A stretch of 64,000 nt of DNA, taken from assembly GCA_015075635.1 (NCBI GenBank), contig JABTUA010000002.1, positions 1,738,708 to 1,802,707 of the forward strand, written 5' to 3'. Positions 31,798-59,094 of the stretch are shown in pieces. This stretch comes from Polyangiaceae bacterium (GTDB lineage: Bacteria; Myxococcota_A; Polyangia; Polyangiales; Polyangiaceae). Position 1 is the stretch's first letter. Every line of letters starts with the position of its first letter. The translations under genes were made by a program, and so were the position numbers. The notes under the pieces are model-generated. The model was not told the origin of the DNA, ran no database searches, and worked only from the letters and a program-made list of their open reading frames with translations.

Positions 31798-33122
<1,325 letters not shown>

Positions 33123-33126
<4 letters not shown>

Positions 33127-40100: not shown

Positions 40101-41606
40101 GGTCGCTTCGCGCAGAGCGACTGGCCGCAGCGCTTCATCAATGGCGGTCAGGAGGTCGACTGGCCGAAGTCGGCGGCGTGGGCGATGCGCATCGTCACCG
40201 ACGGCAAGCTGCGCCGCCTGGTGGCGCGCCTGCTGCGCGCGCGGGCCGACGGCCAGAAGGTCATCGTCTTCTCGCAGTTCACCGACACCCTGGCCTACGT
40301 CGACTCGGTGCTGCGAGCGACGCACGCGCTCTCGCGTCAGGAGTGGGCGATCGTCACGGGGCTGCTCGGTGCCGACGTCGGGCGCGCGGTTCGCCATGAC
40401 GACGTGCTCGCCCTCGTAGACCGCAGCGCCGTCGTCAGCGGCGAAACCGAAGATCGCGATGCGGTCATCCACGCCTTCGCGCCGTTCTACCGTCTCGGCC
40501 CGTCGCGCCCGCGCTTGCCCGGCGCTTCGGTCTTCGAACAGCAGCAGCTCGATGCGCTGTGGACCAACGGCTGGACGCAGGCGCTCAAGCAGCCCACCGA
40601 CGTCCTCTTCGCCACTGACGTTCTCGCCGAGGGCGTGAACCTCCAGGACGCCGCGCTGCTCATCAACTTCGACGTCCACTGGAACCCGGTGCGGATGATC
40701 CAGCGCGCGGGCCGCATCGACCGCCGCCTGAACCCCGCCATCGAAGAGGCAACGAGCTTCCCCGACCTCGAAACGCTCGCGCGTGACCTCGGCGTTCCGC
40801 CGCCGCGCTACTGGTGGCACGCGCACGCCGGCGCCGCGCCCGTCACCGTGAACCTGCTCCTGCCCGACGAGCTCGAGGCCGAGCTGCAGCTCCGCGAGCG
40901 CATCGCCAACAAGACGCTCGCCATCGACTTCACCCTCGGCCTCGAACAGGGCACCGGCGCCGAAGCTGACTGGATGGCCGACTACCGCTTCCGGGGCATC
41001 TCGGCCCTCAACGCCTGGCAGGGCGACCGCGCCATCGAGCAGATCGCGGGCTACCAACAACGCCTTCGCCGCCTCATGAGCGAGCGCGGCATCGACGCCG
41101 AGTGGCTCGCCGCGTGGAACGGCTGGCTCCGTGAGGTCGGCGGGCGCCAAGACGACCGCATCCTCGCGTGGGCGCAGCTTGGCCGTAAGGGCGGCGAGAC
41201 CACCGTCTACACGCGGCAGCTCCAACCGCGCCTCGTTGACGGTGTTCCGCACTGGCTGTGGACGACGGCGAAGCCCGCGGACTCGCTGCTCAACTTCTGG
41301 CTCGCACTCGACAGCAAGACCTTCCCGGCGGCGACGCGCACCGGCCTTCCGTTCTCCGAGGACGCCTCGCGCCCCATCGCCGCCTGGGACCTCCTCGCGG
41401 CCTCGCGGCGCCTTGTCGACGAAGACACCGCCCTGGAAGAGCTCGGCGACATGCGCCGCCCCCTCCTGCAAGGTGCGTCGGCCATCTCGGCGGGCTTCCT
41501 TGGCGCGGAGCCCGATCGGCGCGCCATCGCCGTCAGTGGATTTCGACTCCTTCAGCTTCGTGTTCTCGACGAGGCTGCGCCCGTGAGACCGAGTGAGGAA
41601 GCATGA
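37200..41606 (+). CDS. SNF2-family helicase with ~420-aa unknown N-terminal region (DrmD-like / type-ISP motor-like)
   Basis: Motif [13 protein letters not shown], motif [12 protein letters not shown], motif [18 protein letters not shown]-lobe [41 protein letters not shown]. Confidence 0.9.
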
Positions 41607-44600
41607 AGAAGGAAGAGTTCGTTAGCCGCATTCTCGATGGTGTCGCGCCCAAGCCGAAGAAGGCGTCGAAGTCGACTTCGGCCGCTTCGTTCAGCGCAGA
41701 CGATGTCTTCGGCAACGACGACACCACCACGCCCTCGGTTCCGCCGCCCGCCGATACGCGCTTCGCTCAGCTCCTCCTCGAGGAGGTCTTCGCGCACGGT
41801 GAGGCGCAGCCCCGTGACGAGATCGTCCTCGGCGACCAGAGGACCAGCAAGTTCCTGCCGAACGCCGGCATCTACTGGCCGAAGACCAACGAGCGCCCGT
41901 TCCACATCGTGCTCTTCGAGCTCGACAAGAAGGGGCGCGAGCTGCTGGCCGACCCGTTCTTCCGGCAGACCGATCAGCTCGAAGACGCGCTCCACCGCAT
42001 CGTTCAGGACGTCCTCGAGGGCTTCGAGAAGAAGCGCACGGCGTCCGCCCGGCAGGGCGCTCAGACCGAGACCCTCTGCGTCGTCTCCATCGTCGACGAC
42101 CGCGCCTCCTCTGCAGGCCGCCAGATCGTCTGCTTCGGAACCAAGAGCACCACCACCGGCGCCCTCGAGGTGTTCACGCTTCGCGAGGAGGTGCGAGACT
42201 GGGATCGGCCCTTGGCCGAGGAGCACCTCGATCAGCTCTTCAGCCGTCACTTCGAGAAGCTCGCTAGCGGCGCCAAGTGGCAGGACGCCTTCATCACGGG
42301 CGCCGAGCGCAAGAAGATCAAGGACCTCCTCGCGGTCTGCACGCAGGGGAGCCTGCTCGGGATCGCCGAAGAGGAGTTGCGCAAGAAGCTCCGCGACGTG
42401 CTCGACGAGATCGCGGGCTCGTTCGGCATCCACCGCAAGAGCGCGAACCAGAACCGGCGCCTCGACATGATCGAGCTGCCCGTGAACCACGGCATCGGCG
42501 CCGATCCCGTCGAATCGCAGAAGCCAGGCTTCAAGAACCCGCTCCAGGGCGTTCGCATCTACGACCGCAACGAGCGGCTCCTCGGCTTCATCGTGTACGT
42601 CGCCTCGACCAAGGCGAAGGTCGAGCCGCTGCGCGCAGCGCTCGCGAACAACAACCACTTCCACAACGTCCTCGTCATCTACCCCGACAGCGCCGAGCCG
42701 GAGCTGGAGCTCTGGCAGGGCAGCACGCCGCTCCGTGGTCGCCTCACGCGAGGCCCGAAGCGGACTCAGTTCGACGGCGAGGGCGGCGTCGTCCAGCTCC
42801 TCTCGCGCTTCTTCGTCGTCAGCAAGAGCGCCATCGAGAAGCCGAAGCAGCTGGCCACCGAGCTGGCGTGGCGCGCCCAGCATCTGAAGGCGCTGGCCGT
42901 CGAGGAGCTGGAGAAGGAGATCGCGGCGGGCAACGACAGGGGCCCGCTCAAGAAGCTGTTCGACACCTTCAACGCCGCGCTCGCCACGCTCACCGTCGAG
43001 AAGTTCGCCGACGCCTACGCGCAGACGATCACCTACGGCATGTTGGCCGCGCGCTGGATCTCGAGCGACGACGAGAACAAGCCGCTCTTCACGCGCAAGA
43101 ACTTGAAGGACCTGCTCCCCGAGACGAGCGCGTTCTTGAAGGACCTGTTCGACAAGCTGGTCAACAACTCCAACTTCGACAAGAACCTGACCTGGCTTCT
43201 CGACGACATCACCAGCTTGCTCGCGCGCACCTCGGTCAAAGAGGTATTCCAGGACGAGAAGCGCGACCCGTCGATCCACTTCTACGAGGACTTCCTCGAC
43301 GCCTACGACCCGCAGGTACGCAAGGACCAGGGCGTCTACTACACGCCCGACGAGGTGGTCTCGTACATCGTGCGGACCGCGCACGCCTCGCTCCAGAATG
43401 ACTTCGGTCTCCCGCTCGGTCTCGCCGACACGACGGCGTGGGCCGCCTTCGCCAAGGCGAAGAAGCTGTCGGTGCCCGAGGGCGTCGACCCGAAGGCGCC
43501 CTTCGTCCAGGTGCTCGACCCGGCGCTCGGAACGGGCACCTTTATCCTGCGCGTCATCGAGGTCATCCACGAGACGATGCAGGCCGAGTTCAAGAAGCAG
43601 GGGCTCGACGAGGAGGCCGCGCGCAAGGCGTGGGTCAGCTACGTCCGCAAGGACCTCTTGCCGCGCATCAACGGCTTCGAGCTGATGATGGCGCCCTACA
43701 TCGTGAGCCACCTGCGCCTCGGACTCGCGCTGCAGGAGACCGGCTTCACGTTCACGAAGAACGATCGCCTACGTGTGTTCCTCACCAACTCGCTCGAGCC
43801 GCACACGGCAGCTCAGCTCTCATTCATAGGAGAACACGTCGCGGAGGAGGCGAAGGAGGCAGAGCGTGCCAAGAAATCCATCCGCGTCACTGTCGTGGTG
43901 GGCAACCCGCCTTACGCCGGTCACTCGCAGAACAACGGCGAATGGGCGCGAGGCCTTGTCGAGCCGTACCGGAGTATCGGCGGCAAGGCGCTACGCCTCG
44001 CTCAAGGAAAGTGGCTCCAGAACGACTACGTGAAGTTCATCGCGTACGCAGAACGCAGACTTGCTGCGACTGGGTTCGGAGTGCTTGGGTTCATAACCGA
44101 CCACAGCTACTTGGATGGCGACACGTTCCCGGGCCTGAGGCATCACCTCCTGACCACCTTTTCGAACGTGGACGTGCTGAACCTCCACGGGAATCTCGCC
44201 CGCCGCGAAGCTCCCCCCGATGGCGGGGCTGACGACAACGTTTTCAACATCATGCAAGGCGTTGCGATCTTGTGCGCGCGGCGCACTCCGGACGCTGCTG
44301 CCGATGGGTTGGCCACCTTCCGAACCGCTGACTTGTGGGGTGCGCGTGGACCGAAGCTGCAGCGGCTTCGCGCAGCCTTCGAGGGCGTTGCGCCCATCGT
44401 CTGGCTCACCGACGTCCAGCACGATGACCGTTTCCTCTTTCTCGCGACTCGTACGGGCACGGATGCGAGTGTCGAGTTCGCGCAGTTTGATGCCATCGAC
44501 GCGGTGTTCTCCCCCAATGGCAGACCTGCGCCTGGCTTCCTGACCACGCACGACGACTTCGCGATCGCATTCACCCGAGAAGAAATCTCTGACCATGTAA

Positions 44601-45625
44601 CCACGCTGCTCGCCACGAAATCCGAGGCGGACGCGCGCGACCAGTTCAAGCTCTGCACGCAGTCGCAGTGGCAGTACGCCAACGCCAAGAAGGTCCTGGC
44701 TACCGGCGGATGGCGAAAGCAGTTGGTGTCGTGCCTGTACCGTCCCTTCGATGAGCGATGGACGGTCTATGACCCGAGCGTCCTTGTTCATCGCCGAGAG
44801 CGCGTGAACGCCCATCTCCTGGATCCGGGAAACGTCGCCCTCCTCACGACGCGAATGACCAAGGGAGACGACTTCAACCACGTCTTCTTGTCCGACCAGA
44901 TCACAGAGGTCATCAGCCTTTCGTCGAAGACCTCGGCCAACGCGTTCGTGTTCCCGCTGTTCCTCCGCGATCCCGACGGACTCGTGAAGCGCAACCAGCC
45001 CAACATCGACCGCCACGTGGTGGCTGCGTACACCGACATCGCGGGGAAGGCGGCCACGCCCATGGCGATGTTCGAGTACTGGTACGCCGTACTCTCCAGT
45101 CCATCCTACAGACGGCGGTACAACGATCTCCTCATCCGAGAGTTCCCTCGCGTGCCTCGCCCCTCGTCGGCTGAGGTGTTCAAGGCGCTTGGCGAGCACG
45201 GGAAGCGCCTCGTCGAACTGCACCTGCTGAAGACGTCGCCGAAATCGCTCGGGCCCGATGAGGGACTCCAGGGAAAAGGGGACGGAGTCGTCGCGCCTGG
45301 GATGCCGAAGTTCGACGCTAAGGAAGGAAAACTCTGGATCAACACGAAGCAGTGGTTCGGAGGAGTCTCCGCTGCTGTCTGGGGATTCAAGATCGGCAGC
45401 TACGAGGTCTGCAAGAAGTGGCTCTCCGCCCGGCGTGGACGCGCTCTCTCAACTGACGAGTCCCGGAGGTTCGCGCTGGTGCTCAACGCTCTCCGAGAAA
45501 CGATCGAGGAGCAGAGCAAGATCGATCGCACCATCGAGACGTGCGGCGGGTGGCCGGATGCCTTCCGCCTGGTCGGAGGTGCGGCGGCAGCCGCGAGCGT
45601 GCCCCCCGAGGAAGACGATGAGTAA
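41603..45625 (+). CDS. N6-adenine DNA methyltransferase, gamma-class, with type-ISP-like C-terminal specificity region
   Basis: [14 protein letters not shown], motif [14 protein letters not shown], motif [12 protein letters not shown]. The C-terminal [25 protein letters not shown] resembles the type ISP/IIG C-terminal domain. ATGA overlap with the helicase gene. Confidence 0.88.
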
Positions 45626-47546
45626 TGCCCGCTTCTGGTTCGTCCCCCTGAAGGACATCGCGCCCGCCGAGCAGCAAGCCCAGCTCGCCGCGAAGGAGGA
45701 CGTGCGCGCGAGCGACCTGCCCGCGTCGTTCAACGTCCCGTCAAAGCTCCATCAAGAGGGCATTCGCGCGGGCCACGTGCTCGCTCTGCACGACGGCGAC
45801 ACCGTAACGGCGCTCGCGCGCGTGCTGGCGCTAGACAGTGCGAGCTCGCTGCACTGGCGACGCCTACCGATGCTGGAGGCGCCGGAGCTGTCGGCGACGC
45901 CGGAGCTGCGCGAGGTCACAAGCACGGAGGCCCAGCAGTTCAAGGTCGGCATCGACGCCGTCCTTCGCGACGTGCCCGCGAGCAGCGTCGCGACGGCGAC
46001 GCCAACCACCACGGCCGCCTCTGGCGCGCGCTACTGGAAGGTCGCTCCCGGTCGAAACGGCATCGCGTGGCCCGAGTGGCGACAGCGAGGCATCGCGGCC
46101 ATCGGCTGGCCCGACCTCGGCGACATCTCCACGCTCGCCGAGGCTGACTTCCAAGCGCTCTCCAAGGCCAAGTACAACAAGAGCAAGCGCAGCGAGGGGC
46201 CGTACCAGGTGTGGCTGTTCCGCGCGATTCAGCCCGGGGACCGCGTCATCGCCAACAACGGGAGGACGTCGATCCTCGGCGTCGGCACCGTCACCGAGGG
46301 CTACCGGTATCGGCCCGGCGAGCACACCGTCGAGGGCGAGGACTTCCCGCACCAGATCAAGGTGAAGTGGGACGACACCACCGCGCGCGACATCGAGGAC
46401 CAGGCAGACTGGACGCGCACGCTGCGCGAGCTGCCGCAGGAGAAGTTCGAGACGCTCGTCGGCGGTAGCGGAGCCGTCCCGTTCTCGGTCACCGACCCGA
46501 GCAACATCATCCTCTACGGCCCGCCCGGCACCGGGAAGACGTACAACGTGCGAAGGCGCGCCCTCGAGCTGCTGGGCGACGCGACCGCCACCGACGCACC
46601 GAACGATCATGTGCAAGCCGAGTGGGAGCGGCTGCGCCAGGCGGGGCAGATCGTCTTCTGCACGTTCCACCAGGCCTTCGCCTACGAGGAGTTCGTCGAA
46701 GGCCTGCGCGCCATCACCGACGAAGAAGGCGACGTCCACTACCGAGTCGAGCCCGGCATCTTCAAGCGCATCGCCGCCACGGCGGCGCAGCAACGGAAGG
46801 CCGCCTTCGTCCTCGTTATCGATGAGATCAACCGCGCCAATATCGCGCGCGTCTTCGGCGAGCTGATCACGCTGCTCGAACCCGACAAGCGGCTCGGCAA
46901 CCCGAACGAACTGCGCGTGCAGCTCCCGTCGTCGAAGGAGTGGTTCGGCGTGCCGCCGAACCTGCACGTCGTCGGCACCATGAACACCGCCGACCGCTCC
47001 ATCGCGCTGATGGACGTCGCGCTGCGCCGCCGGTTCACCTTCGAGGAGATGATGCCCGACGCCGACGCGCTGAGCGATGCGCTCGCCGAGGCGAACGTCG
47101 ACGAGGCGTTGCGCACGCTTGTCGTCGCGGTGTTCACGAAGCTCAACGAGCGCCTGCGCTACCTCTACGACCGCGAGCACCAGATCGGGCACGCCTACTT
47201 CTTCGGCGTGCGCTCGTTCGATGGTCTGCGTGCCGTCTTCGCCGACTGCATCCTCCCGCTGCTTCAGGAGTACTTCTACGGCCAGTGGGACAAGGTCGCA
47301 CTCGCACTCGGCTACCCGATCAAGGCCGACGGCACGCCGAAGGAGGTGCGCGGCACCGAGCACGGCAGCGGCACCTTCCTCACGACGCAGAAGCTCGACG
47401 AGAAGACCGTGCTGGGCTTCGACCACGACGAGTACGTCGACCAGGTCGCGTGGGACGTGCATCCGGCCTTCCGCCCGCGCGGCAAGGCTGGCGATACGTG
47501 GCTGAAGCAGGCCTTCGAAGAGCTGGTTAGAGCCAAGGGGACCTGA
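45618..47546 (+). CDS. mcrB: McrB-family AAA+ GTPase with two-part N-terminal reader-like region
   Basis: ILYGPPGTGKTY, FHQAFAYEEFVEG, VLVIDEINRANIARVFGELITLLE, VVGTMNTADRSIALMDVALRRRF. 8-nt overlap with the MTase gene. Confidence 0.9.
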   Translation: MSNARFWFVPLKDIAPAEQQAQLAAKEDVRASDLPASFNVPSKLHQEGIRAGHVLALHDGDTVTALARVLALDSASSLHWRRLPMLEAPELSATPELREVTSTEAQQFKVGIDAVLRDVPASSVATATPTTTAASGARYWKVAPGRNGIAWPEWRQRGIAAIGWPDLGDISTLAEADFQALSKAKYNKSKRSEGPYQVWLFRAIQPGDRVIANNGRTSILGVGTVTEGYRYRPGEHTVEGEDFPHQIKVKWDDTTARDIEDQADWTRTLRELPQEKFETLVGGSGAVPFSVTDPSNIILYGPPGTGKTYNVRRRALELLGDATATDAPNDHVQAEWERLRQAGQIVFCTFHQAFAYEEFVEGLRAITDEEGDVHYRVEPGIFKRIAATAAQQRKAAFVLVIDEINRANIARVFGELITLLEPDKRLGNPNELRVQLPSSKEWFGVPPNLHVVGTMNTADRSIALMDVALRRRFTFEEMMPDADALSDALAEANVDEALRTLVVAVFTKLNERLRYLYDREHQIGHAYFFGVRSFDGLRAVFADCILPLLQEYFYGQWDKVALALGYPIKADGTPKEVRGTEHGSGTFLTTQKLDEKTVLGFDHDEYVDQVAWDVHPAFRPRGKAGDTWLKQAFEELVRAKGT

Positions 47547-48934
47547 TGCTGCGCGTGACTGTCCTCGAGCGTGGCCGCATCGTGCGGTCTGACTCCGACG
47601 CCGACAGCGTCGAGCTTGGGACACCTTCGCGCCGCGTGCTGCCCCAGCGCCTGTACGACCGGCTCTATCGCAGCGAGGGCGCTCGCGAAGACCGAGGCGA
47701 GGCGGCGGTGTTTCGCTGGCGGCGTAACCACTGCTTCGTCGGCCCCTGGGTTGGTGTGATGCAGATCCCCGGTTTGCAGCTCGAGATCTTGCCGAAGACC
47801 GACGAGGGCGCGGCGCAGGACAGCGACCAGGATGTCCGCGACATCCGAAGCAACCTGATGGAGATGCTGCTGCGCGGGGGGCTCGGAGCGGTGCGCGCGC
47901 GCGGCATCGCCGACCTCGCCCTCAAGCGCGGCAACCTTCACGATCAGCTCGTCGCCGCCTTCCTCGAGCGCACGCTGTTCGAGCTGCGGCGTGGGCTCGA
48001 TCGCGGCTACGCCACCGAGGAAGACAACCTCGCGACGCTGCGAGGCAAGCTCGTGCTCTCGCGGCACGTGGCGCTGAACGCCGCGCAGAAGGCCCGCTTC
48101 TACTGCCGGCACGACGTGCTCACCGAGGCCACGCAGATCTCCGTGCGGCTCAAGCAGGCGTGCCGCGTGCTCGCCGGCCGCGTGCTGCCCGTGACCGTAC
48201 TGGTGAAGTGCCATCAGGTGCTCGCGCTGCTCGACGACGTGCCCGACCTGCCGTTCCGCCACCGCGAGCCCGACCCGGTGTTCACGCGCCAGAACGAGCG
48301 CTTCGCCGACATCTACGGCTTCGCCTGCATGCTGCTCGAAGGCCAGGCGCCCGACGCGCGCAGCGGCGAGGTCGAGACCTTCTCCCTGCTGTTCGACATG
48401 GAGCAGGTGTTCGAGCGCTACATCGCCGCATTCCTCGCCTCCGAGGTCATGTACCGCTTTGCCGACGCGAGCCTGTTTCCGCAGGCGAAGGGGCAGCGTC
48501 ACAACCTCTACCTCGACGGGCAGGAGAAGGTGCTGCGCATGGCGCCCGACCTCGTATTCGTTCACGAGACGGCGGGTATCGAAGAAGCCAAGACGAAGAC
48601 GCTGATCATCGACACGAAGTGGAAGCGCCTCTCCGAAGAGGATGGCGGTCGCCCGAGCCGATCGGACCTCTACCAGCTCTACGCCTACCTGCACCGCTAC
48701 GACTGCCAGCGCGCGCACCTGCTCTATCCGAAGGCGGCGGGCATCCAGACGCGCGACCTCAATGCACGAGGGCGCAACGACTCGGACGCGGGCACGGTGG
48801 GCGTGCGCTTCGTCGACCTGAACCGGAAGCTCTGGACGCGCGAAGGCAAGACGGCGTTGGCCGACGAGCTCGCGGTCATCGTCCGTGAAGGTCTCGACCT
48901 CGCAGCGGCGGCGCCCGTGGAGGCCACGGCATGA
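47546..48934 (+). CDS. mcrC: McrC-family PD-(D/E)xK nuclease subunit
   Basis: APDLVFVHE...LIIDTKWKRL...DLYQLYAYL. TGATG overlap with mcrB. Confidence 0.85.
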   Translation: MLRVTVLERGRIVRSDSDADSVELGTPSRRVLPQRLYDRLYRSEGAREDRGEAAVFRWRRNHCFVGPWVGVMQIPGLQLEILPKTDEGAAQDSDQDVRDIRSNLMEMLLRGGLGAVRARGIADLALKRGNLHDQLVAAFLERTLFELRRGLDRGYATEEDNLATLRGKLVLSRHVALNAAQKARFYCRHDVLTEATQISVRLKQACRVLAGRVLPVTVLVKCHQVLALLDDVPDLPFRHREPDPVFTRQNERFADIYGFACMLLEGQAPDARSGEVETFSLLFDMEQVFERYIAAFLASEVMYRFADASLFPQAKGQRHNLYLDGQEKVLRMAPDLVFVHETAGIEEAKTKTLIIDTKWKRLSEEDGGRPSRSDLYQLYAYLHRYDCQRAHLLYPKAAGIQTRDLNARGRNDSDAGTVGVRFVDLNRKLWTREGKTALADELAVIVREGLDLAAAAPVEATA

Positions 48935-51525
48935 CCCGCGCTTCCTTCGACGTCCTCGTCACGCGCCTCGCCGAGTCGCCCACGACGTTCAGCGAGCGTG
49001 AGCTGCTCGAGCCCTCGCACTGGAGCCTCGGCGAAGACGCGCGGCTGCGCGAGGACCTGCGCTTCCGCGAGACGCCCTGGGGCCGCTGGATGCTCGCCGA
49101 GGACCTCGTCGTCAACGACGCGGTCTACCGCTGGCTCCACGCCGAGCGGCGCAGCTCGGTCGCGCTCGACGCCGCGCTGAAGCGCGCGGGCGAGGTGTTC
49201 GGGCGCCGCAGCGTGTTCTGCGCCGACGACCCGCGCTTCGTGCTGCGCCACGACGCGGTCCACCTCGCGGCGAGTGAGCTGTCGCGCCAGCCGGTGGTTG
49301 AGGGCAAGATCGGCGATCTTGAGAAGTACCGAACGCACCTGCCGCTCCACAGCCTGAAGGCAGCCGCCGCCTCGGAGCCCGCCGGCGAGTGGGGGAAGCG
49401 TGCGCAGGACCAGGTCATCGAGACGCTCGGCTGGGTGCGCGTCTCGCTGCCCGGGCGTCGGCTCAACGATCGGATGTTCATCGCGGCCATCGAGGGTCAC
49501 AGCATGGACGACGGCAGGAGCGGCCTCGTCGACGGCGGCTACGCGGTCTTCGAGCTCTGGCCGTCGGGCACCAAGCAGAACCTGAGCGTGCTGGTGCGCG
49601 GCGCCTTCTCCGACCCGGAGACCGGCAACTACGCGGTCAAGAAGTACGTGGCCGACCAGCGCGACGAAGAGGGTCGCCACAACAAGGTCTCGCTCGTCTC
49701 GCTGAACCCGAACAAGGAGCGCTACCCGAGCATCGAGCTGCAGCCCGAGGACGACGATGACATCACCGTCGTGGCCAAGGTGGTGCAGGCGCTCTCGACC
49801 GACGACTACGAGCGGCGCCCCAAGGCGAAACGCCGCGTGGGTCGGCGCAACCTCACCGGTGACGAGCAGGCCACGAGGCTCGGCCGTCGCGTGGCGTCGT
49901 TCTTCGATGGCACCGCGCCCGAGGCCGACGACGAGGGCGCGACCACGGCGACGAGCACCGGCTGGCAGACGCGGCTCGTGTGCCTCGACATCGCCGCTGG
50001 CGGTCTGCAGCTCGAGGTCGGCCCGCTCGATGGTCTCCCGACGTTCGTGAAGAAGCTGCGCGTCGTGGGCACGGAGTGGGATGGCTTCGTGCTGTCGGCG
50101 AACGCCAAGACGCGCCCGACGCGCGCGGCGGTACGTCCTGGAACGGGCCCGTGGCGCTGGGAGGCTGTGGGCTTTGAGGAGGAGCACGACCTCGGCCTCG
50201 ACAAGCTCGCCCTCGACGCGCTCGACGTAATGGCGCCCACCGTGTTCCGCGTCGATGCCGACGGCGTCGGCCAGCGCATCAAGAGCACGACCCTCGCGCT
50301 CGAGCAGGCCTACCGGTTGCTGCTCCCGCCGAACGTCGGAGATGACCTCGGCACCGAGCTGGATGGCGGCTGGCGTATCTGGTCGCTCGACCTCGCGGCG
50401 CAGCTCGCGCCCGCGACGCGGCAGATGCTGTTCACGCTCGGGCTTGATGTCGGTGAGGCGTGGCCGCGACTGGAGTGGGCGCTGGCTCCGGCTTCCGCGT
50501 GGCACACCAACCCGCGCGGCGAGAGCTACCCCGTCTTCGAAGTGGGCACGGAACTGCTCGTGAACGTGGGCAGCGTCGCGGTGGAGGATGGCGACGAGGC
50601 TGTGCTGTTCCTCCACGGCCCCTCGGGGACCGAGCGCCTGCCGCTGCCGTCGAGCGGCCTCGTCTCGCTGGGCGCGCCCGCAGCAGGGCGCTGGGCCTGC
50701 GCGCTCGTGCACTCGCGCACCAGCGTGCAGCCCGCGTCGCTGCTCTTCGAGGTCGCGGAGGACGCGCTTGAGGATATCGCTGCGTCGTACTCGGCGGTCG
50801 CCCACAGCGGACTGGCTTCGCTCGAAGCGGCGGCACCGCCCGGCTGGCCCGTCACGCTGCGCTGGCGCGTCTTCGCCGCCCACGAGGAGCTGCTGGCGAC
50901 CGTCTACGGCAACGAAGACGGGACGGTGCCGGTCGACGGCGATGTCGCGGAGACGATCAAGACCCGCGCCGCGCGGAGTCGCATCGCCGACCTCCTGATC
51001 GACTTCGGCGAGTTGGGGCGACGCATCCTCGCCCACGACGGCCGCGCGTCGTTGAAGCAGGTGCGTGAGCAACTCACGGCCCTCTGGCAGCAGTGCTCCG
51101 GCCTCGTGCAGAGCCGCAAGGGCGCGTGGCTCCAGCTCAGGAAGCCGTGGTTCGAGCCCGTCACGGAGCTCTTCGGTTACGGCCTCGAGGAGGCGACGCT
51201 GCTCGCCGACGTCGAGGCTCCTCATGACCTCACCGCGTGGGGTCTCACGGTCGACGAGCGCATGATGGGCAGCATCACGCGCTCGCCCTCGCGTGTCCTC
51301 GTGCTCACCACGGACCTTGACGCCGTGCTGCGCGACCACCGCACGTGGATCGACAGCGCGTGCTCGGCAGCGAAGGTGCGTGACGCCATCATCACCGATG
51401 GCGCCCGCTGGACGACGCACCGCAAGGGCAGCCAGCAGCTCAAGCAGCAGGTGTGGAGCCTCGATCACGCCATCGGGCTCGGCAGCATCGACGAGATGCT
51501 CGGCGACCTCGCGGAGAATCTGTGA
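48931..51525 (+). CDS. S24 (LexA/UmuD-like) domain protein fused to a ~554-aa unknown C-terminal module
   Basis: HLPLHSLKAAAASEPAGEWG...AAIEGHSMDD...YAVKKYV...ITVVAKVV fits the S24 Ser-Lys fold. The C-terminal module (from 49861) is paralogous to the C-terminus of the next gene. Confidence 0.8.
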   Translation: MTRASFDVLVTRLAESPTTFSERELLEPSHWSLGEDARLREDLRFRETPWGRWMLAEDLVVNDAVYRWLHAERRSSVALDAALKRAGEVFGRRSVFCADDPRFVLRHDAVHLAASELSRQPVVEGKIGDLEKYRTHLPLHSLKAAAASEPAGEWGKRAQDQVIETLGWVRVSLPGRRLNDRMFIAAIEGHSMDDGRSGLVDGGYAVFELWPSGTKQNLSVLVRGAFSDPETGNYAVKKYVADQRDEEGRHNKVSLVSLNPNKERYPSIELQPEDDDDITVVAKVVQALSTDDYERRPKAKRRVGRRNLTGDEQATRLGRRVASFFDGTAPEADDEGATTATSTGWQTRLVCLDIAAGGLQLEVGPLDGLPTFVKKLRVVGTEWDGFVLSANAKTRPTRAAVRPGTGPWRWEAVGFEEEHDLGLDKLALDALDVMAPTVFRVDADGVGQRIKSTTLALEQAYRLLLPPNVGDDLGTELDGGWRIWSLDLAAQLAPATRQMLFTLGLDVGEAWPRLEWALAPASAWHTNPRGESYPVFEVGTELLVNVGSVAVEDGDEAVLFLHGPSGTERLPLPSSGLVSLGAPAAGRWACALVHSRTSVQPASLLFEVAEDALEDIAASYSAVAHSGLASLEAAAPPGWPVTLRWRVFAAHEELLATVYGNEDGTVPVDGDVAETIKTRAARSRIADLLIDFGELGRRILAHDGRASLKQVREQLTALWQQCSGLVQSRKGAWLQLRKPWFEPVTELFGYGLEEATLLADVEAPHDLTAWGLTVDERMMGSITRSPSRVLVLTTDLDAVLRDHRTWIDSACSAAKVRDAIITDGARWTTHRKGSQQLKQQVWSLDHAIGLGSIDEMLGDLAENL

Positions 51526-54500
51526 TGGCGCCGTCGAACTACGCTGCAATCAGCGACGAGAACCGAACGCGCTACGGCACCGACATCGGCATCGTCGGCC
51601 CGATGCTGCTCGCGGACCGCTACGACGACCGCACGCACTTCATCTTCGAGTTGCTCCAGAACGCCGAGGACGCGCTTGGCCGACGCAGCGACGCGAGGGG
51701 ACCTCGGAGCGTCACCTTCACGCTGTCGCCCTGGCGCCTGAAGCTCTCGCACTTCGGAAGACCGTTCGACGAGGCTGACGTGCGTGGCGTCTGCGGCATC
51801 GCGCAGAGCACCAAGGACCAGCACTCCATAGGCCGCTTCGGCATCGGCTTCAAGTCGGTCTACACGTTCACGGATTGCCCGGAAATTCACTCGGGCGAGG
51901 AGGACTTCGCAGTCGAAAACTACGTCCAGCCGAAGGCGGTGGCGCCGTCGGCGCGCGTCGCAGGCGAGACCCAGATCATCCTGCCCCTCAAGTTGGGCGA
52001 CAGCAGCGCGGAGCAGGAGATCGCGAACGGCTTCCAGCGCCTCGGCCCTGGCGCGCTGCTGTTCCTTCGACACATCGACGAGATCAACTGGAACATCGAG
52101 GGCGGCGCTTCCGGCGTCTACATGCGGAGCGCCCCGGAAGCTCTCGCTGAGAACGTCCACCGCATCAAGGTGATCGGCCAGGAGACCGGCAAGCCCGAGG
52201 TCGACCAGAACTGGCTGGTGTTCCACCGCGACGTGTCCTCGAACGCCGCCGAGAAGGTCGGTCGCGTTGAGATCGCCTTCTCGCTCATGCCCAGCAACGA
52301 CGAACCCGGGCGATGGGCGGTTCAGCAGCTCGTGGCGTCGCATCTGGTGGTCTTCTTCCCCACGGTCGTCTCCACGAACCTTGGCTTCCTCGTGCAGGGG
52401 CCGTACCGCACGACGCCCAGCCGCGACAACGTGCAGCGCAACGACCCTTGGAACCAACAGCTCGTGCAAGAGACGGCCGACTTGCTGGTAGAGGCCGTTC
52501 GCTGGCTTCGCGACAACGGGATGCTCGACGCTTCGGCGCTGCGTTGCCTCCCGACGGACCGAGCCAAATTCCCCGAGGGCGCGATGTTCACGCCGCTCTT
52601 CGAGGCGGTGCGCGAGGCCTTCTTGGAAGAAGCGCTGCTCCCGCGCAACGACGGCGGCCACGTCACTGCAGCACAAGCAAGGCTGGCGCGCACCCAGGAG
52701 CTGCGAGAGCTGTTCAGCGCCGGGCAGCTCGAGGAGTTGTTCGACGCCGAAGACTGCGCGTGGCTCACGGGAGACATCACGCAGGACCGCGCGCCTGAGC
52801 TTCGAAGGTACCTGCTGCAGGAACTCCAGGTTCCAGAGCTCACGCCCGACAAGATCGTCGTGAAGCTGGACAAGGCATTCCTCGAAGCGCAGTCGGACGA
52901 GTGGCTGACGCGCCTCTATGCCTTCTTGAGCGCGCAGAAGGCGATCGCGGGCCTCTTCAGCGGGCTTCCTTTGGTTCGCCTCGACGACGGCACGCACGTC
53001 GTCGCGCGCGAGAACGGGAAGTCGAATGCGTTCCTTCCCAGCGACATAGAGACCAGCTTCCCGACCGTCCGTCACGCCGTGTGTGGGTCTCCCGAGGCGC
53101 GCAGTTTCCTCGTCTCACTCGGGCTCACGGCACCGGATCCGGTCGATGACGTCGTGTGGAACGTGCTGCCGAAATACCCAGCGCCCGCAGTCGAGGGCGA
53201 CGACAACGCTTATGCCGCCGACATCGAGCGCATCCGCGTCGCCTTCAACACCGACTCGAAGGCGCAGCGAGACAAGCTGGTCTCGGCGCTGCGAGAGACG
53301 TCGTTCGTGATGGTGGTCGATGCCGGTGACGGGGAGGGCTACGTCGCTAGTCCCGGTAAGGTGTACATCGCGACAGACCGACTGAAGGCGCTTTTCGCTG
53401 GCGTTTCTGACGTCCTCGTCGTCGACGACAACTACGAGTGCCTTCGCGGAGAGGCCGTCCGTGAGCTGCTCGAGGCTTGCGGAGCGCTGAGGTACCTGCG
53501 CCCGGTGCCGACCCCGAACGCGCTTTCGCCGGAGGCGCGCCGGGAACTCCGACGCCAAACCGGCCATGAACAACTTGGGCAGTACGAGGATGTGACGGAT
53601 TGGGAACTGCTGGGTATTGAAGCGCTTCTCGCTCTGCTGCCGACGCTTTCCCAAGAGCAGCGCGCTGAACGCGCGCGCTTGCTCTGGGAATCCTTGGGCG
53701 ACCTCGAGGAGCGACGCGGGCGTGGCGTGTTCGAGGGCTCCTACACGTGGACGCACTACGGCCAGCGCAAGGCACCGCCGTTCCCGGCCGCCTTCCTCCG
53801 TCGTCTCGCCAAGGCAGCATGGGTGCCCGATGCCAGCGGCGATCTGGTGCGTCCCGCGCTCGTGACTTTCGAGAGCCTCAGCTGGAAGGCCAACCCGTTC
53901 CTCCTCAGCAAGATCGCGTTCAAGCCGCCGATCATCGACCAACTCGCGAAGGAAGCGGGAATCGAGCCCGCAGCGCTCGACCTGCTGCGAAAGCTCGGCA
54001 TCACCAGCGTCGCCGATCTGGCCCGCATCGGCATCGCCAACAAGCCTCCGCCCTCACCGCCTGATGAAGCGGCGACCGATAACGATGAAACGGCGGACGA
54101 AGGCGCGGAGGCGCAGGCCGCGGAGGTCGACGAGGCCAGCGATGATGCTGACGACGCCCTCAGCGTCGCCAATGCGGCTGCCTCGGAGGATAACGACGCC
54201 TCCGACCTGACCGTGGCCGACGCTGATGAGCCAGCGGGGAGCGACACCAACGACGAAAGCCCCGAAGCAGAACCGACCGGGCCGCACGCCAACGGCGCTC
54301 GCGGACCTCGGTCAACTAGCGGCCAGCACCGCCCCCACGGAGCAGCACGTCCGGGTCAACGCAACATCACCGGCCAAGCAGGGCTCGACGAGCAGGCAAA
54401 GCGCCTGCGGCGCCGCGTGGCGTCGTTCTTCGAGGGCGCGACCTCCGACGCAGACGACGAAGATACGACCGCAAGTTCGAGCGTCGCGTGGCAGACGAAG

Positions 54501-56048
54501 CTCGTCTGCCTCGACGTCGCTGCGGGCGGCCTCCAGCTCGAGATCGGTCCGCTCGATGGTCTCCCGCCCTTCGTGAAGAAGCTCCGCGTCCTCGGCACCG
54601 AGTGGGATGCCTTCGTGTTGGCGACGAACGCGAAGTTGCGCCCAACGCGGGTGTCTGTGCGGCCCGGAACCGGTCCGTGGCAGTGGGAGGCCGTGGGCTT
54701 CGAAGACGAGCAAGACCTCGGCCTCGACCAGCTCGCGCTCGGCGCGCTCGACGTCACGACGCCGCGCGTGTTCCGCGTCGACACAGAGGGCGTGGGCCAG
54801 CTCGTCACGAGCACCACCCTCTCCCTCGGGCAGTCCTATCGGCTGCTGCTTCCGCCGAACGTCGGTGGGGAGGTCGGCACGGCGCTGGCTGACGGGTGGA
54901 GGATCTGGACGCTCGACCTGCCGGCGCAGCTCTCGCCGTCGACGGGCGACGCACTGAAGGCCATCGGCGTTGACGTGGGCGAAGCATCGCCGCGCCTCGA
55001 GTGGGCCCTGGCCCCTGCTTCAGCGTGGCGCACCAACGCGCGTGGCGACAGCTATCCGGTGTTCGACGAGGGGATGGAGCTCCTCGTGAACCTGAACGCC
55101 GTCGCCCTCGAGGACGGCGACGAGGCCATGCTGTCCCTCCACGGCCCCGCAGGCACGGAACGCCTGGCTCTCTCGACGAGCGGGCTCGTCTCCCTGGGCA
55201 AACCCGCGGCGGGACGGTGGGCCTGCGCGCTGCTGCATTCGCGGACCAACGTGCAGACCGCGACGCTGGTCTTCGAGGTCGCGCGGAGCGTCACCGAGTA
55301 CGTCAGCGCGGCGTGGACGACGGGCGTGCCGCACGGATTGGCGTCGCTCGAAGCGACCGCCCCGCCTGGGTGGCCCGTCTCCGTGCGCTGGGGTGGGCTC
55401 GCCGCACACGAGGAGACGATCGCGACGGTCTACGGCAACGACGACCGGACCGTGTCCTTCGAGGATGTCCATCCACTCCTCGAGGCCCGTGCCGCACGAG
55501 CATCCGTCGCTGACCTCGTCGTCGACTTCCGCGAGCTGGGTCGCCGTCTGGTCCCTCTCGAGGGCCGCGCCTCGCTGGAGGAAATCCGCGCGCAGCTCAT
55601 CGCTCTCTGGCAACAGCGCTCCGAGCTCGTGCAGAGCCGCAAGGGCATGTGGTTGCAGCTCATGCCCACGTGGTTCGAGCCGACGACGACACGCCTTGGC
55701 TATGGCGTCGAATCGCTCGCCATACCCGACGGCGCAGATGCGCCGCACGACCTCGCCGCGTACCTGCTCACCATCGACGAGCGGACGAACGGAAGCATCA
55801 CGCGGTCGCCGTCGCGTCTCCTCGTGCTCACGACCGACGTCGACAGCGTGCTCCGCGACCTGCGCGAGTGGATCGACAGCGCCTGCGCGGCAGCGAGGGT
55901 GCGCGACGCGATCGTCACCGACGGCACCCGGTGGGCGACGCACCGCAAAGGCGACCGCCAACTCCGGCGGCGCGAGTGGTCGTTCGACCGCGCAATCAAT
56001 CTCGGCAGCGTGGACGACATGCTGAACGACCTCACGGAGGGTTTGTGA
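51525..56048 (+). CDS. GHKL (Bergerat-fold, sacsin/MORC-like) ATPase, 1507 aa, with acidic linker and shared C-terminal module
   Basis: N-box FIFELLQNAEDAL and G-box SIGRFGIGFKSVYTF. Asp/Glu/Ala-rich linker at about 54040-54290. The C-terminal ~553 aa are paralogous to the previous protein. TGATG overlap. Confidence 0.85.
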   Translation: MAPSNYAAISDENRTRYGTDIGIVGPMLLADRYDDRTHFIFELLQNAEDALGRRSDARGPRSVTFTLSPWRLKLSHFGRPFDEADVRGVCGIAQSTKDQHSIGRFGIGFKSVYTFTDCPEIHSGEEDFAVENYVQPKAVAPSARVAGETQIILPLKLGDSSAEQEIANGFQRLGPGALLFLRHIDEINWNIEGGASGVYMRSAPEALAENVHRIKVIGQETGKPEVDQNWLVFHRDVSSNAAEKVGRVEIAFSLMPSNDEPGRWAVQQLVASHLVVFFPTVVSTNLGFLVQGPYRTTPSRDNVQRNDPWNQQLVQETADLLVEAVRWLRDNGMLDASALRCLPTDRAKFPEGAMFTPLFEAVREAFLEEALLPRNDGGHVTAAQARLARTQELRELFSAGQLEELFDAEDCAWLTGDITQDRAPELRRYLLQELQVPELTPDKIVVKLDKAFLEAQSDEWLTRLYAFLSAQKAIAGLFSGLPLVRLDDGTHVVARENGKSNAFLPSDIETSFPTVRHAVCGSPEARSFLVSLGLTAPDPVDDVVWNVLPKYPAPAVEGDDNAYAADIERIRVAFNTDSKAQRDKLVSALRETSFVMVVDAGDGEGYVASPGKVYIATDRLKALFAGVSDVLVVDDNYECLRGEAVRELLEACGALRYLRPVPTPNALSPEARRELRRQTGHEQLGQYEDVTDWELLGIEALLALLPTLSQEQRAERARLLWESLGDLEERRGRGVFEGSYTWTHYGQRKAPPFPAAFLRRLAKAAWVPDASGDLVRPALVTFESLSWKANPFLLSKIAFKPPIIDQLAKEAGIEPAALDLLRKLGITSVADLARIGIANKPPPSPPDEAATDNDETADEGAEAQAAEVDEASDDADDALSVANAAASEDNDASDLTVADADEPAGSDTNDESPEAEPTGPHANGARGPRSTSGQHRPHGAARPGQRNITGQAGLDEQAKRLRRRVASFFEGATSDADDEDTTASSSVAWQTKLVCLDVAAGGLQLEIGPLDGLPPFVKKLRVLGTEWDAFVLATNAKLRPTRVSVRPGTGPWQWEAVGFEDEQDLGLDQLALGALDVTTPRVFRVDTEGVGQLVTSTTLSLGQSYRLLLPPNVGGEVGTALADGWRIWTLDLPAQLSPSTGDALKAIGVDVGEASPRLEWALAPASAWRTNARGDSYPVFDEGMELLVNLNAVALEDGDEAMLSLHGPAGTERLALSTSGLVSLGKPAAGRWACALLHSRTNVQTATLVFEVARSVTEYVSAAWTTGVPHGLASLEATAPPGWPVSVRWGGLAAHEETIATVYGNDDRTVSFEDVHPLLEARAARASVADLVVDFRELGRRLVPLEGRASLEEIRAQLIALWQQRSELVQSRKGMWLQLMPTWFEPTTTRLGYGVESLAIPDGADAPHDLAAYLLTIDERTNGSITRSPSRLLVLTTDVDSVLRDLREWIDSACAAARVRDAIVTDGTRWATHRKGDRQLRRREWSFDRAINLGSVDDMLNDLTEGL

Positions 56049-57031
56049 TGACGCTCTCGCATGTCACTCGCGAAGAGGCAGTGAAGCGGCTCGCTGAGAG
56101 GCAAGCCGGTGCCCCAGACTCCATCGAAGCGCTGTGCGATTTCCTGCGCGCCGAGGTTCACGCCCGGAAGCACGCGCCGCGCGCGGCGACGCTTTCGCGC
56201 GTCGCACGACTGCTCGCGCCCGCCATCACGCTCGATGAGCAGCGCCTCGACGAGGTGTGCGACGCGCTCGAGCGCGAGGGTGACGTGATGCTCAACCCGG
56301 GCGGCATCCTCTACGCAACGCCGACCCGCGTGGTTGCCACTGAGACGAGTGCTCGTACCTTCAGCAGCGTGCCGACGCGCGCGCTTGCGAAGGCGCTCGG
56401 ACGCGACATCTCCGCGAAGGGCGCCTCGCGCACAATCACCTCGGTGGAAGGGCTCACCGAAGCCGTCGCCAAGGTGAGCGGCGTGATGGTCCCACCCGCA
56501 GCGTGGGCCGGGCTCGACCGCTCGCCGAACGCCGACGCGGCCTTCCTTGGGAAGCTCGACCAGAGGCTCGAATGGCAGGCGCTCGGCGCAGGCTCGCTTG
56601 AGAAGGACGGGGCGCTCGAATGGCGTGCCTGGCATGTCACGCCGGAAGGGGCGCGGTGGCGGCGCAGCAACGAAGGCCAACTCTGGTGGGCGCGTACGCG
56701 CTTCGGCAGCCACCATCGCGCGTGGACGACGAGCGCGTCTCCGGCGACGAGCCCGTTCGTCGCGCTGAGCCCCGACGACGCCGACCGCGCCCGCTTCGCG
56801 CTCTCGCGCGAGATCGCTGCGGCTTCGGTCCTGCGTGTCGAGCGAGCCGGCAAGCGCGTGACTATCGAGGTTCCCGGTTGGCTGCCGCGCCCCGAGTACC
56901 GCTGGCTCTCGCTGCACGCGGTGGCCGTTGCGGAGAGCAAGGGCATGCGCTGGGAGACCTCGACGGATAGCGAAGACCAGATCACGAAGCTGCTGGCCGA
57001 GCGTCTCGGTCTCGTCGTGGAGGCCACGTGA
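56048..57031 (+). CDS. Hypothetical protein (327 aa)
   Basis: The ATG at 56048 overlaps the previous stop (TGATG). GC3-biased. No family recognised. Confidence 0.7.
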   Translation: MTLSHVTREEAVKRLAERQAGAPDSIEALCDFLRAEVHARKHAPRAATLSRVARLLAPAITLDEQRLDEVCDALEREGDVMLNPGGILYATPTRVVATETSARTFSSVPTRALAKALGRDISAKGASRTITSVEGLTEAVAKVSGVMVPPAAWAGLDRSPNADAAFLGKLDQRLEWQALGAGSLEKDGALEWRAWHVTPEGARWRRSNEGQLWWARTRFGSHHRAWTTSASPATSPFVALSPDDADRARFALSREIAAASVLRVERAGKRVTIEVPGWLPRPEYRWLSLHAVAVAESKGMRWETSTDSEDQITKLLAERLGLVVEAT

Positions 57032-59094
57032 CGCGACGACAGCTCACCATCAAACCGAGCTGCATGCGGGAGATCGCGACGTTCCCTTCGGACCGCGCCG
57101 CGCTGCTCTGGGACAAGATCGACGCGCTCGTCTCCGACCCACTCCCCGATGGGAAGGTGAAGAAGAAGCTCAAGGGCGCCGACGGCGTCTACCGCATGCG
57201 CGTGACGGACCACCGCGTGTTCTATCGCTTCGGCGAGGACTGGCTCAGCCTGCTCGGCATCCGGCGGCGCGCCGAAGACACCTACGACGGCGTGCCCGAC
57301 GAGACCGCCGGCGCCCAAGCGCCCGACGACGGCGACGAAAACCTCGATGCGCTCATCGCAGCCGCGCAGCCGAAGGTCTTCCAGCTCAAGACGACCGCGC
57401 CCGAGACAACGCTGCCCGAGCCCATCACGCAGGAGCTGCTGCGCGAGCTCGGCGTGCCCGTCGCGGTGGTGCCGACTCTGTTGCACTGCAAGACGGAAGA
57501 AGCGTTGCTCGAAGCCCCCGTGCCTCCCGACGTTCTCAGTCGCGTCGTCGACCGCCTCTTCCCGCCGACCATCGAACGGCTCGACGAGCAGCCCGATCTC
57601 GTCGTCGCGTCCACGAAGGACCTGGTTCGTTTCAAGGAGGGCGACCTCCTCGGCTTCCTGCTGCGGCTCGACGAGGACCAGCTCAAGCTGACCCAGTGGG
57701 CGATGAAGGGACCCACGCTTGTTCGTGGCGGTGCAGGTACGGGCAAGAGCACCGTCGCCCTCTACCGCGTGAAGGCCCTCCTCGAACGGCCCGGCGCGAC
57801 AGGCGCCGAGCGCGTGCTGTTCACGACCTACACGCGCTCGCTGCTCACCGTAACGCAGCAGCTCCTCGAACAGCTCCTCACGCCCGCCCAGCTTCGCCGT
57901 GTCGATGTCGCGACGTGCGACCAGGTTGCATGGCGCATCGTCGGCAAGGCTCGCAAGGTCGGCCAGCTCGAATCCGACAACGACGCGCTCAAGCGCCTGG
58001 CCAAGCTCCGGGCGACGCACGCGCCCGGCGGCTCCGACTTCGAAGCGAAGCTGCGTGCGCGGGCGCTGGAGCGCCTGACGGACGCGTGGCTGCTCGAAGA
58101 GTTCGAGTGGATCATCGAGGGACGCGGCCTGACGAGCCTCACCGAGTACCAGGCGGCGGCGCGTCCGGGTCGAGGGCTGCCGCTCAACGAGCGTGCTCGC
58201 GCGGCTGTTTGGGAACTGTACGAGGCGTTCAGCAGGGGCGCGGGCGAACGCTACCCGGCGCTGCGCTGCGAGGCGCTGAAGCTGCTCGCCGAAGACGCCA
58301 AGGCGGTCCGCTACGACTACGTGGTCGTCGATGAGGCGCAGGACCTGAGCCCCGTCTCGCTCGCGCTGATGGCCGAGGTCTGCAAGACCGCCGAGGGCCT
58401 GTTCTTCGCCGCCGACAACAAGCAGTCGCTCTACTCGCGCAACTACACGTGGAGCTCGGCGCACCCGCGCCTCCAGTTCCGAGGGCGCACGGCGCTGCTC
58501 TCTCGCAACTACCGCTCGACGCGTGAGATCGACCGCGCCGCGTTCTCGGTGCTCGTGCCCGGTGAGGACGAGGAGCTGGTGGCCTCGAATAGCGTCCACG
58601 AAGGGCCGCTTCCGGTGCTGGTACGTGGCATCGCCGCCGACAAGCAGGCCGAGTGGATGGCACGCTTCGTCCGGCAAATGGCGCGTCACCTTCACCTGAA
58701 GGCGAGCACCGCCGCCGTGCTCGTACCCGTGGCTGCCGCAGGCGAAACGCTGGCCACCGAGCTTCAGGCGCAGGGCGTCCCGGCTCGCTTCTTCCCTGGC
58801 CGCGATCTCGACCTCAAGGCCGACGTCGTGCGCGTGTTGACGCTGCACGCGGCCAAGGGCCTGGAGTTTCCCATCGTCATCGTCGCTGGCCTCGACAGCG
58901 GCAACTGGCCCGTGCCCGAGGACTTCGAAGAACCGGACCTCTTCGCTGAGCGCGCACGCCACGAGCGGCGTGTGCTCTACGTCGGGCTCACCCGCGCGAT
59001 GCGCGGCTTGATGCTGATTTCTCCACAAGGATGTCGGCATCCCGCCGTCGTCGATCTCGACCTCAACCACTGGCACGTGGAGAGCGCCCCATGA
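57028..59094 (+). CDS. RelE/ParE-like N-domain fused to UvrD/Rep-type SF1 helicase
   Basis: N-terminus KKLKGADGVYRMRVTDHRVFYRFGEDWLSLLGIRRRAEDTY. Helicase motifs GGAGTGKSTVALY, YDYVVVDEAQDLSP, RNYRSTREI, LTLHAAKGLEFPIVIV, VLYVGLTRAMRGL. Confidence 0.88.
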   Translation: MTRRQLTIKPSCMREIATFPSDRAALLWDKIDALVSDPLPDGKVKKKLKGADGVYRMRVTDHRVFYRFGEDWLSLLGIRRRAEDTYDGVPDETAGAQAPDDGDENLDALIAAAQPKVFQLKTTAPETTLPEPITQELLRELGVPVAVVPTLLHCKTEEALLEAPVPPDVLSRVVDRLFPPTIERLDEQPDLVVASTKDLVRFKEGDLLGFLLRLDEDQLKLTQWAMKGPTLVRGGAGTGKSTVALYRVKALLERPGATGAERVLFTTYTRSLLTVTQQLLEQLLTPAQLRRVDVATCDQVAWRIVGKARKVGQLESDNDALKRLAKLRATHAPGGSDFEAKLRARALERLTDAWLLEEFEWIIEGRGLTSLTEYQAAARPGRGLPLNERARAAVWELYEAFSRGAGERYPALRCEALKLLAEDAKAVRYDYVVVDEAQDLSPVSLALMAEVCKTAEGLFFAADNKQSLYSRNYTWSSAHPRLQFRGRTALLSRNYRSTREIDRAAFSVLVPGEDEELVASNSVHEGPLPVLVRGIAADKQAEWMARFVRQMARHLHLKASTAAVLVPVAAAGETLATELQAQGVPARFFPGRDLDLKADVVRVLTLHAAKGLEFPIVIVAGLDSGNWPVPEDFEEPDLFAERARHERRVLYVGLTRAMRGLMLISPQGCRHPAVVDLDLNHWHVESAP

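Follow-up and report, generated by a model that had tools for sequence, protein, structure and literature searches.

A divergent S24 peptidase domain in a subunit of an McrBC-containing, ARMADA-like defence cassette, and its possible role as a proteolytic switch

The window analysed here is a stretch of 64,000 nucleotides from a Polyangiaceae bacterium (contig JABTUA010000002.1, positions 1,738,708 to 1,802,707), and all plain coordinates below are those of the window. It carries a nine-gene defence cassette, the fifth gene of which encodes a protein of 864 amino acids (aa). Based on profile comparisons and a structure model, the segment at 49330-49801 (frame 1; residues 134-290 of this protein) is a divergent domain of the S24 type of Ser-Lys peptidases, to which LexA, UmuD and lambda cI belong, and its homology with these is established. 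The first-pass annotation, which quoted the peptide of this segment, had already recognised the S24 layout, a G-x-S-M nucleophile and a V-K-K/R general base, the location inside a defence operon, and the placement between an N-terminal domain of about 130 aa and a duplicated module; all of these readings held. It had also supposed, as a speculation, that damage or infection would trigger a proteolysis that releases the C-terminal module; the release was not borne out, and damage, infection or RecA* as the trigger is purely conjectural. A cut that frees the N-terminal domain instead, made intramolecularly in the manner of LexA and UmuD by a catalytically competent S24 domain and switching the system, is regarded here as possible, with a likelihood slightly short of even.

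The evidence for the S24 identity came mainly through relatives of the protein. A sample of 48 family members was assembled, which reached down to about 29% overall identity. PF00717 (Peptidase_S24) was matched by 18 of them, with a best E value of 7e-7, and no other Pfam family was found in any member. A profile of the domain (residues 118-300) was run against 1.84 billion representative proteins and retrieved 581 of them at E<=1e-3 and 163 at E<=1e-10. When ten of these matches were scanned individually, nine passed the PF00717 cut-off (27-49 bits; the curated gathering threshold is 23.3 bits), and the tenth, P0165, which has the architecture of the target itself, scored 17 bits. The nearest relatives outside the family gave a uniform result, as all 83 that were scanned matched PF00717 (best E=4.6e-16). 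Aligned with the target family by hhalign, these outsiders gave a probability of 99.9% and E=3.7e-35 over 156 columns, and their own profile found LexA chains as its sole matches in the PDB (E=0.003-0.01). The target family was also compared by hhalign with the single sequence of Escherichia coli LexA; the alignment was not significant and paired GHSMDD with GMSMKD.

The predicted structure pointed in the same direction. The full protein was modelled with AlphaFold2 from the 48-sequence alignment, and the model had a mean predicted local distance difference test score (pLDDT) of 85.7 and a predicted template modelling score (pTM) of 0.49, the latter indicating that single domains were well modelled and their mutual arrangement was not. 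In a Foldseek search of the PDB the model was matched with a probability of 1.00 both to 2hnf, a hyper-cleavable fragment of lambda cI (162 columns, template modelling (TM) score 0.68 on the target), and to 3k2z, the full-length LexA of Thermotoga maritima (234-241 columns).

The predicted catalytic residues were located by alignment and conservation. The nucleophile motif is formed by G189-H-S191-M192 (49495-49506) and the general-base motif by V236-K237-K238 (49636-49644), the latter within AVKK (A235-K238). When E. coli LexA and UmuD, with sequences checked against textbook residue numbers, were aligned with the protein by MAFFT, Ser191 fell on S119 of LexA and S60 of UmuD, and Lys237 fell on K156 of LexA and K97 of UmuD. 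Ser191 was retained in 47 of the 48 members and Lys237 in 45, the remaining three having Arg at position 237.

The scissile bond of LexA, cI and UmuD is located immediately before the catalytic core, on its N-terminal side, and the stretch homologous to their cleavage site was found at the same place here, as THLPLHSLKAAAASEPAGEWG (aa 135-155). It reads AAAASEPAGEWG and not the canonical Ala-Gly. This region was the most conserved of the whole protein. Over the 37 members more distantly related, identity to the window protein averaged 68% in the cleavage-site region (aa 131-156), 57% in the S24 core, 44% in the N-terminal domain, 34% in the Ig-like (immunoglobulin-like) array, 29% in the linker and 27% in the C-terminal alpha/beta domain. 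At single positions, A146 was kept in all 48 members, A147 in 46, and S148 and P150 in 44 each. The AAS motif and the dyad also tended to be kept or lost together: the members that have lost Ser or Lys of the dyad (P0154, P0171 and P0268) lack the AAS motif too, and it is present in 44 of the 45 members whose dyad is intact (Fisher p=2e-4, a value that is uncorrected for phylogeny and perhaps reflects two independent events). This joint loss suggests a functional link between the segment and the active site, the segment serving as a substrate or as a pseudo-substrate.

Two bonds are candidates for the cut. When AASEP is placed on AAGEP of LexA, with Glu-Pro as anchor, Ala147-Ser148 becomes the counterpart of Ala84-Gly85 of LexA. 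The hhalign comparison with the S24 domains of restriction enzymes, described below, instead pairs GEWG with G.FG of these relatives and treats ASEPA as an insertion, so that Ala151-Gly152 is the counterpart (AGEWG/AGxFG). As the cleavage-site region lies ahead of the core, cutting either bond in the manner of LexA would detach the N-terminal 147-151 residues or so, and not the C-terminal module. Between the core and this module, no conserved site of the S24 type was found.

In the mechanism that we favour, although tentatively, the AAAASEPAG segment would dock in the Ser191/Lys237 site and be cut at Ala147-Ser148 or Ala151-Gly152. The trigger could be a signal that arises when the helicase and McrBC machinery of the cassette engages foreign DNA; by analogy, the filament of RecA on single-stranded DNA (ssDNA) is the precedent in this family. 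An N-terminal domain of about 16 kDa would then part from the fragment made up of the S24 domain and the C-terminal module, the module would hold the S24 fragment within the McrBC/helicase complex, and the state of the system would change. We infer that cleavage occurs, and likewise the bond that is cut, the trigger and the direction of the effect.

A number of results weigh against this mechanism or against the assignment on which it is built. The full-length protein had no Pfam match at E<=0.1. The domain alone matched positions 17-116 of the PF00717 profile with E=0.0015 and 18.6 bits, which is below the cut-off of 23.3 bits. Among the PDB sequences, no match to LexA, UmuD or cI was obtained by phmmer with the window domain, with a close-family profile or with the profile of the 48 members, and these searches with the domain and the family profiles returned only chance matches to antibodies and NOMO2. 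Gly was present at position 147 or 148 in none of the 48 members, the position of Gly85 of LexA being occupied by Ser148, and to our knowledge all characterised S24 self-cleavers have Gly at P1'. This family-wide replacement of the canonical Ala-Gly means that even self-cleavage is not assured. As for the second candidate bond, G152 was kept in 41 of the 48 members and A151 in only 27, which makes the latter a poorly conserved P1. In the model, aa 142-146 formed a short helix and aa 152-161 had a pLDDT below 50, so that docking of the segment in the active site was not confidently predicted. In addition, nothing was found that links the system to RecA.

Some of the same observations could be explained if the domain acted in trans, as a Ser-Lys protease on another subunit of the cassette or on a phage protein, with AAAASEP as an autoinhibitory pseudo-substrate that is displaced on activation. 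The conserved dyad would be expected in this case, the joint loss of dyad and motif fits a pseudo-substrate equally well, and the missing canonical Gly would explain an occupant of the active site that cannot be cleaved. UmuD cleaves intermolecularly in its dimers, and the sister family S26 cuts other proteins after Ala-X-Ala. A trans-acting protease is nevertheless judged unlikely, because no conserved candidate site was found elsewhere and because we know of no S24 member that acts mainly on foreign substrates. The linker of the sacsin-like neighbour (gene 6 of the cassette) contained no conserved S24-type site; the AAAS within it was rejected as a trans site since it varies among orthologues, and AAGG in the C-terminal module was rejected since both its P1 and P2 are variable.

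Alternatively, the S24 domain could be mainly a structural module for dimerisation or scaffolding, with proteolysis having no role in defence. The C-terminal domains of LexA, cI and UmuD' dimerise and would be the model for this. The non-canonical cleavage site is in line with it, as are the proteins that have lost Ser or Lys and kept the architecture (P0154, P0171, P0268 and the 174-aa P0167), and a gene in the middle of an operon, with overlapping stops and starts, is typical of subunits of complexes. However, the retention of Ser191 and Lys237 in nearly all members extends across several phyla, and it is hard to see why conservation should peak in the cleavage-site region if this served neither catalysis nor the binding of a substrate. 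A purely structural role is therefore considered improbable. A LexA-like repressor of the operon, the N-terminal domain of which would bind an operator and the SOS-type self-cleavage of which would derepress the defence genes, is very improbable: the order of winged-helix-like N-terminal domain, cleavage region and S24 core is that of LexA and the Foldseek alignment with full-length LexA extends beyond the catalytic domain, but the gene is the fifth of nine and translationally coupled to McrC, the protein has a C-terminal module of 560 aa in common with the neighbouring ATPase, and the N-terminal domain matched no helix-turn-helix (HTH) family.

The protein shares with LexA, UmuD and cI (MEROPS S24, PF00717) the fold, the positions of the G-x-S-M nucleophile and the V-K-K/R base, the Ala-rich cleavage-site region just before the core and a separate N-terminal domain ahead of it. 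It differs from them in several respects. The S24 core is internal and followed by the 560-aa module, whereas theirs is C-terminal; the site has Ala-Ser (AAAASEP) in place of the canonical Ala-Gly or Cys-Gly; and the protein, encoded in the middle of a defence operon, is probably a subunit and not a regulator. Compared with LexA in particular, the core has two insertions, and the N-terminal domain is not recognisable as a DNA-binding domain of the LexA or HTH_3 type.

The closest relatives of the domain were S24 domains at the extreme C-terminus of restriction and defence enzymes (P0173-P0270; E=1e-20 to 4e-11). Their partners included Schlafen-like helicase, ResIII, Type_ISP_C, RE_endonuc, HNH, AlwI, DpnI_C and MZB domains and methyltransferases of the Eco57I and MmeI types. 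The clade as a whole comprises hundreds of clusters at 50% identity, in which the S24 domain is fused to enzymes of types IIG, ISP and III, to Schlafen-like helicases and to HNH nucleases; HTH domains occurred in only a few of its members. These relatives have the core insertions, the lead-in LP(L/V)xSLKAAA and the defence context in common with the target family. They differ from it in that the canonical site LKAAAG.FG is kept and the domain stands at the very C-terminus, the target family having a five-residue insertion at the site and a large C-terminal extension.

In the textbook case, it is S24 peptidases that connect DNA damage, sensed through RecA filaments, with gene regulation, mutagenesis and prophage induction. 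Taken together, the two groups could be read as a clade of self-cleaving S24 domains that restriction and defence enzymes took over to serve as a proteolytic switch and that became, in the present family, a dedicated subunit with an evolved site, although this joint reading is somewhat unlikely. It would couple the sensing of DNA damage, or of ssDNA and RecA filaments, to the activation of restriction or to its self-protective alleviation, and the change of the site from Ala-Gly to AAAAS would give new cleavage rules or a new trigger. If the Ser191/Lys237 site does process the protein, a widespread, horizontally mobile system of the McrBC/ARMADA-like kind would be under post-translational control by an irreversible self-cut, and the same logic would probably extend to the many restriction enzymes with a C-terminal S24 domain and canonical Ala-Gly. 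It would also answer how multi-helicase systems turn on, or turn off to spare the host chromosome.

The fold and the chemistry of the domain are already known. Literature searches on S24 domains in defence or restriction systems returned nothing relevant, including no description of the clade fused to restriction enzymes. Several features thus appear to be undescribed in the literature searched, namely the internal position of the domain and its altered cleavage-site motif, the C-terminal module in common with a GHKL-type ATPase, the constant presence of an S24 subunit in an ARMADA-like cassette that contains McrBC, and the large sister clade of S24 domains on restriction enzymes.

The ORF (open reading frame) encoding the S24 protein is a genuine gene. 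It overlaps both neighbours, its ATG the stop codon of the McrC gene (ATGA) and its TGA the start of the gene that follows. Among 5.8 billion proteins searched, 362 homologues were found at E<=1e-3, and identity was 62-100% among the 120 matches listed. The match at 100% was from a metagenome-assembled genome of Polyangiaceae, while homologues in Xenophilus, Rhodanobacter and Corallococcus were 88-92% identical, which points to horizontal spread of the gene. One homologue had been named automatically as an 'S24 family peptidase' in UniRef. No homologue was found in the plasmid or phage collections, and the protein matched no PADLOC model and no NCBIfam model.

The gene belongs to a run of nine genes that point in the same direction and whose ends overlap or abut (Table 1). 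The order of these genes was constant, for all genes present, in each of 25 related loci from Myxococcota, Beta-, Gamma- and Alphaproteobacteria, Acidobacteriota and Desulfobacterota, and it held even where the S24 protein was only 37-40% identical. Judged from this conservation of sequence and order, the S24 protein is a stoichiometric, translationally coupled and fixed subunit of a conserved nine-gene defence cassette, in which McrBC, helicases and a methyltransferase are predicted.

Table 1. Features of the S24 protein and genes of the cassette, in window coordinates
Feature	Position	Strand	Basis
S24-domain protein gene (gene 5), 864 aa	48931..51525	+	ORF listing, homologue search
N-terminal domain, aa 1-130	48931..49320	+	model, Foldseek alignment, conservation
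Cleavage-site-region homologue, aa 135-156, THLPLHSLKAAAASEPAGEWGK	49333..49398	+	alignments, conservation
Candidate scissile bond 1, Ala147-Ser148	49369..49374	+	AASEP on LexA AAGEP, Glu-Pro anchor
Candidate scissile bond 2, Ala151-Gly152	49381..49386	+	hhalign against restriction-enzyme-fused relatives
S24 catalytic core (predicted), aa 162-290	49414..49800	+	Pfam, profiles, Foldseek, hhalign
Ser191 codon (AGC), predicted nucleophile in GHSM	49501..49503	+	alignment, conservation
Lys237 codon (AAG), predicted general base in AVKK	49639..49641	+	alignment, conservation
Basic segment, conserved helix and acidic linker, aa 291-344	49801..49962	+	model, conservation
Ig-like beta-sandwich array (modelled), aa 345-661	49963..50913	+	model; Foldseek matches to adhesin and cytokine-receptor Ig/FN3 (fibronectin type III) arrays
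C-terminal alpha/beta domain (modelled), aa 662-864	50914..51522	+	separate model, Foldseek
Gene 1, SNF2-family helicase, ArmA/BrxH-like	37200..41606	+	
Gene 2, Type IIG/Type ISP-like N6-adenine methyltransferase with specificity domain, ArmB-like	41603..45625	+	
Gene 3, McrB-like AAA+ GTPase with N-terminal reader-type domain	45618..47546	+	
Gene 4, McrC	47546..48934	+	PF10117, E=3.4e-58
Gene 6, sacsin/TmtA-like GHKL-type ATPase	51522..56048	+	
Gene 7, conserved 328-aa protein, no assigned function	56045..57031	+	
Gene 8, UvrD/GajB-like helicase with N-terminal ParE/RelE-like domain, ArmD-like	57028..59094	+	
Gene 9, very large DEAD-box helicase, ArmC/YprA-like, extends beyond the window	59091..64000	+	

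Judged by the likeness of its proteins, the cassette is an ARMADA-type-II-like system with an McrBC insert. ARMADA type II (ArmA-D) is an experimentally validated, non-abortive anti-phage system (PMC12458937, preprint). Both have a SNF2/BrxH-like helicase, a PglX/type IIG-like methyltransferase, a RelE/ParE-UvrD (GajB-like) helicase and a YprA-like helicase, and both adjoin a tRNA gene and an integrase (PMC12458937). The ParE/RelE-like N-terminal domain reported for ArmD (PMC12458937) was also found in gene 8, the N-terminus of which (57028-57280, forward strand) matched the ParE/RelE-toxin-like PF05016 with E=2.5e-4. In gene 9, an orthologue in locus L003 that is 88% identical has the MZB/DUF1998 domain of YprA-family helicases. 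In contrast to the four-gene order A-B-C-D, the present order is A-B-[McrB-McrC-S24-(sacsin-like)-unknown]-D-C, and it is the same in the related loci that reach these genes. The ARMADA preprint makes no mention of an S24, McrBC or sacsin component (PMC12458937), and a census of McrBC remarked that McrBC is associated with a 'DISARM-like' cassette, the description of which it deferred (PMC11090510).

Gene 6 matched the PADLOC models of TmtA, the protein of the Tiamat system (E=1.8e-57), together with the sacsin ATP-binding domain. It differs from TmtA in that only its N-terminal 800 residues or so are matched; its last 560 or so repeat, as a paralogous copy with 62-68% identity, the linker and C-terminal module found in the S24 protein. 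Among the related loci, gene 6 was confined to the closer ones and was absent, for example, from L001, L008 and L011-L018, which suggests that it is an accessory paralogue of the C-terminal module. In the S24 protein the module common to both begins at about aa 303 and extends to aa 864.

As modelled, the S24 protein has five parts, i.e., a winged-helix-like N-terminal domain, the cleavage-site region, the S24 core, an Ig-like array and a restriction-endonuclease-like alpha/beta domain. The N-terminal domain was confidently predicted by AlphaFold2 as alpha/beta; its helix-helix-hairpin layout could be that of a winged helix, and it contains the invariant motif HWxLGEDARLREDxRFRxTPWGRW. Neither in the window protein nor in the 48 members did it match any Pfam or HTH family. 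An identity as a HARE-HTH domain was unsupported, as hhalign against the single sequence of the Bacillus subtilis RpoE delta subunit was not significant. The core is followed by a conserved helix with the motif RRNLTG..DEQAxRLGRRVASFFDG.

The C-terminal domain has the conserved motif ITDGxRW and, when modelled alone, reached a pLDDT of 91.9 and a pTM of 0.86. It had no significant match in the PDB; the best was HsdR of EcoR124I (E=0.045), and several of the top weak matches were also HsdR. A borderline match, the best in BFVD, was to a phage 'Type I restriction enzyme R protein N-terminal domain' (E=0.0099, probability 0.97, query TM 0.40). The domain was not called a nuclease, as no D...ExK motif is conserved in it. 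It is possibly, at most, an inactivated restriction-endonuclease fold of the HsdR-N-like, PD-(D/E)xK type, and such an inactivated nuclease fold may serve in the binding of DNA or protein.

The defence region resembles a genomic island that has integrated at a tRNA gene. A tRNA-Thr gene (31798-31872) is followed by a tyrosine integrase gene (31804-33225, reverse strand), the cassette lies just beyond, and the G+C content drops from about 71% to 64-69% from about 32 kb onward. Upstream of the cassette, at 35239-37220 on the reverse strand, a DUF5131 protein adjoins a match to PDC-M41A of PADLOC (E=3.8e-129), and the two resemble a separate candidate defence pair.

Differences in identity along the related loci were also observed. 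In L020, identity to the window was 98-99% for the SNF2 helicase and the methyltransferase but only 38-62% for McrC, the S24 protein, the 328-aa protein and the two helicases downstream. For the methyltransferase by itself, identity ranged from 37 to 99% between loci in which the neighbouring genes were 80-95% identical. Such a mosaic cassette, seen in L020 and also in L007, L010 and L021, suggests recombination and the swapping of specificities. Three loci had an extra 2-3 kb between the genes for McrB, McrC or the S24 protein (L013, 6730-8622; L016, 3701-6575; L020, 8001-10001); this DNA was not matched by the cassette proteins of the window and may represent additional inserted genes.

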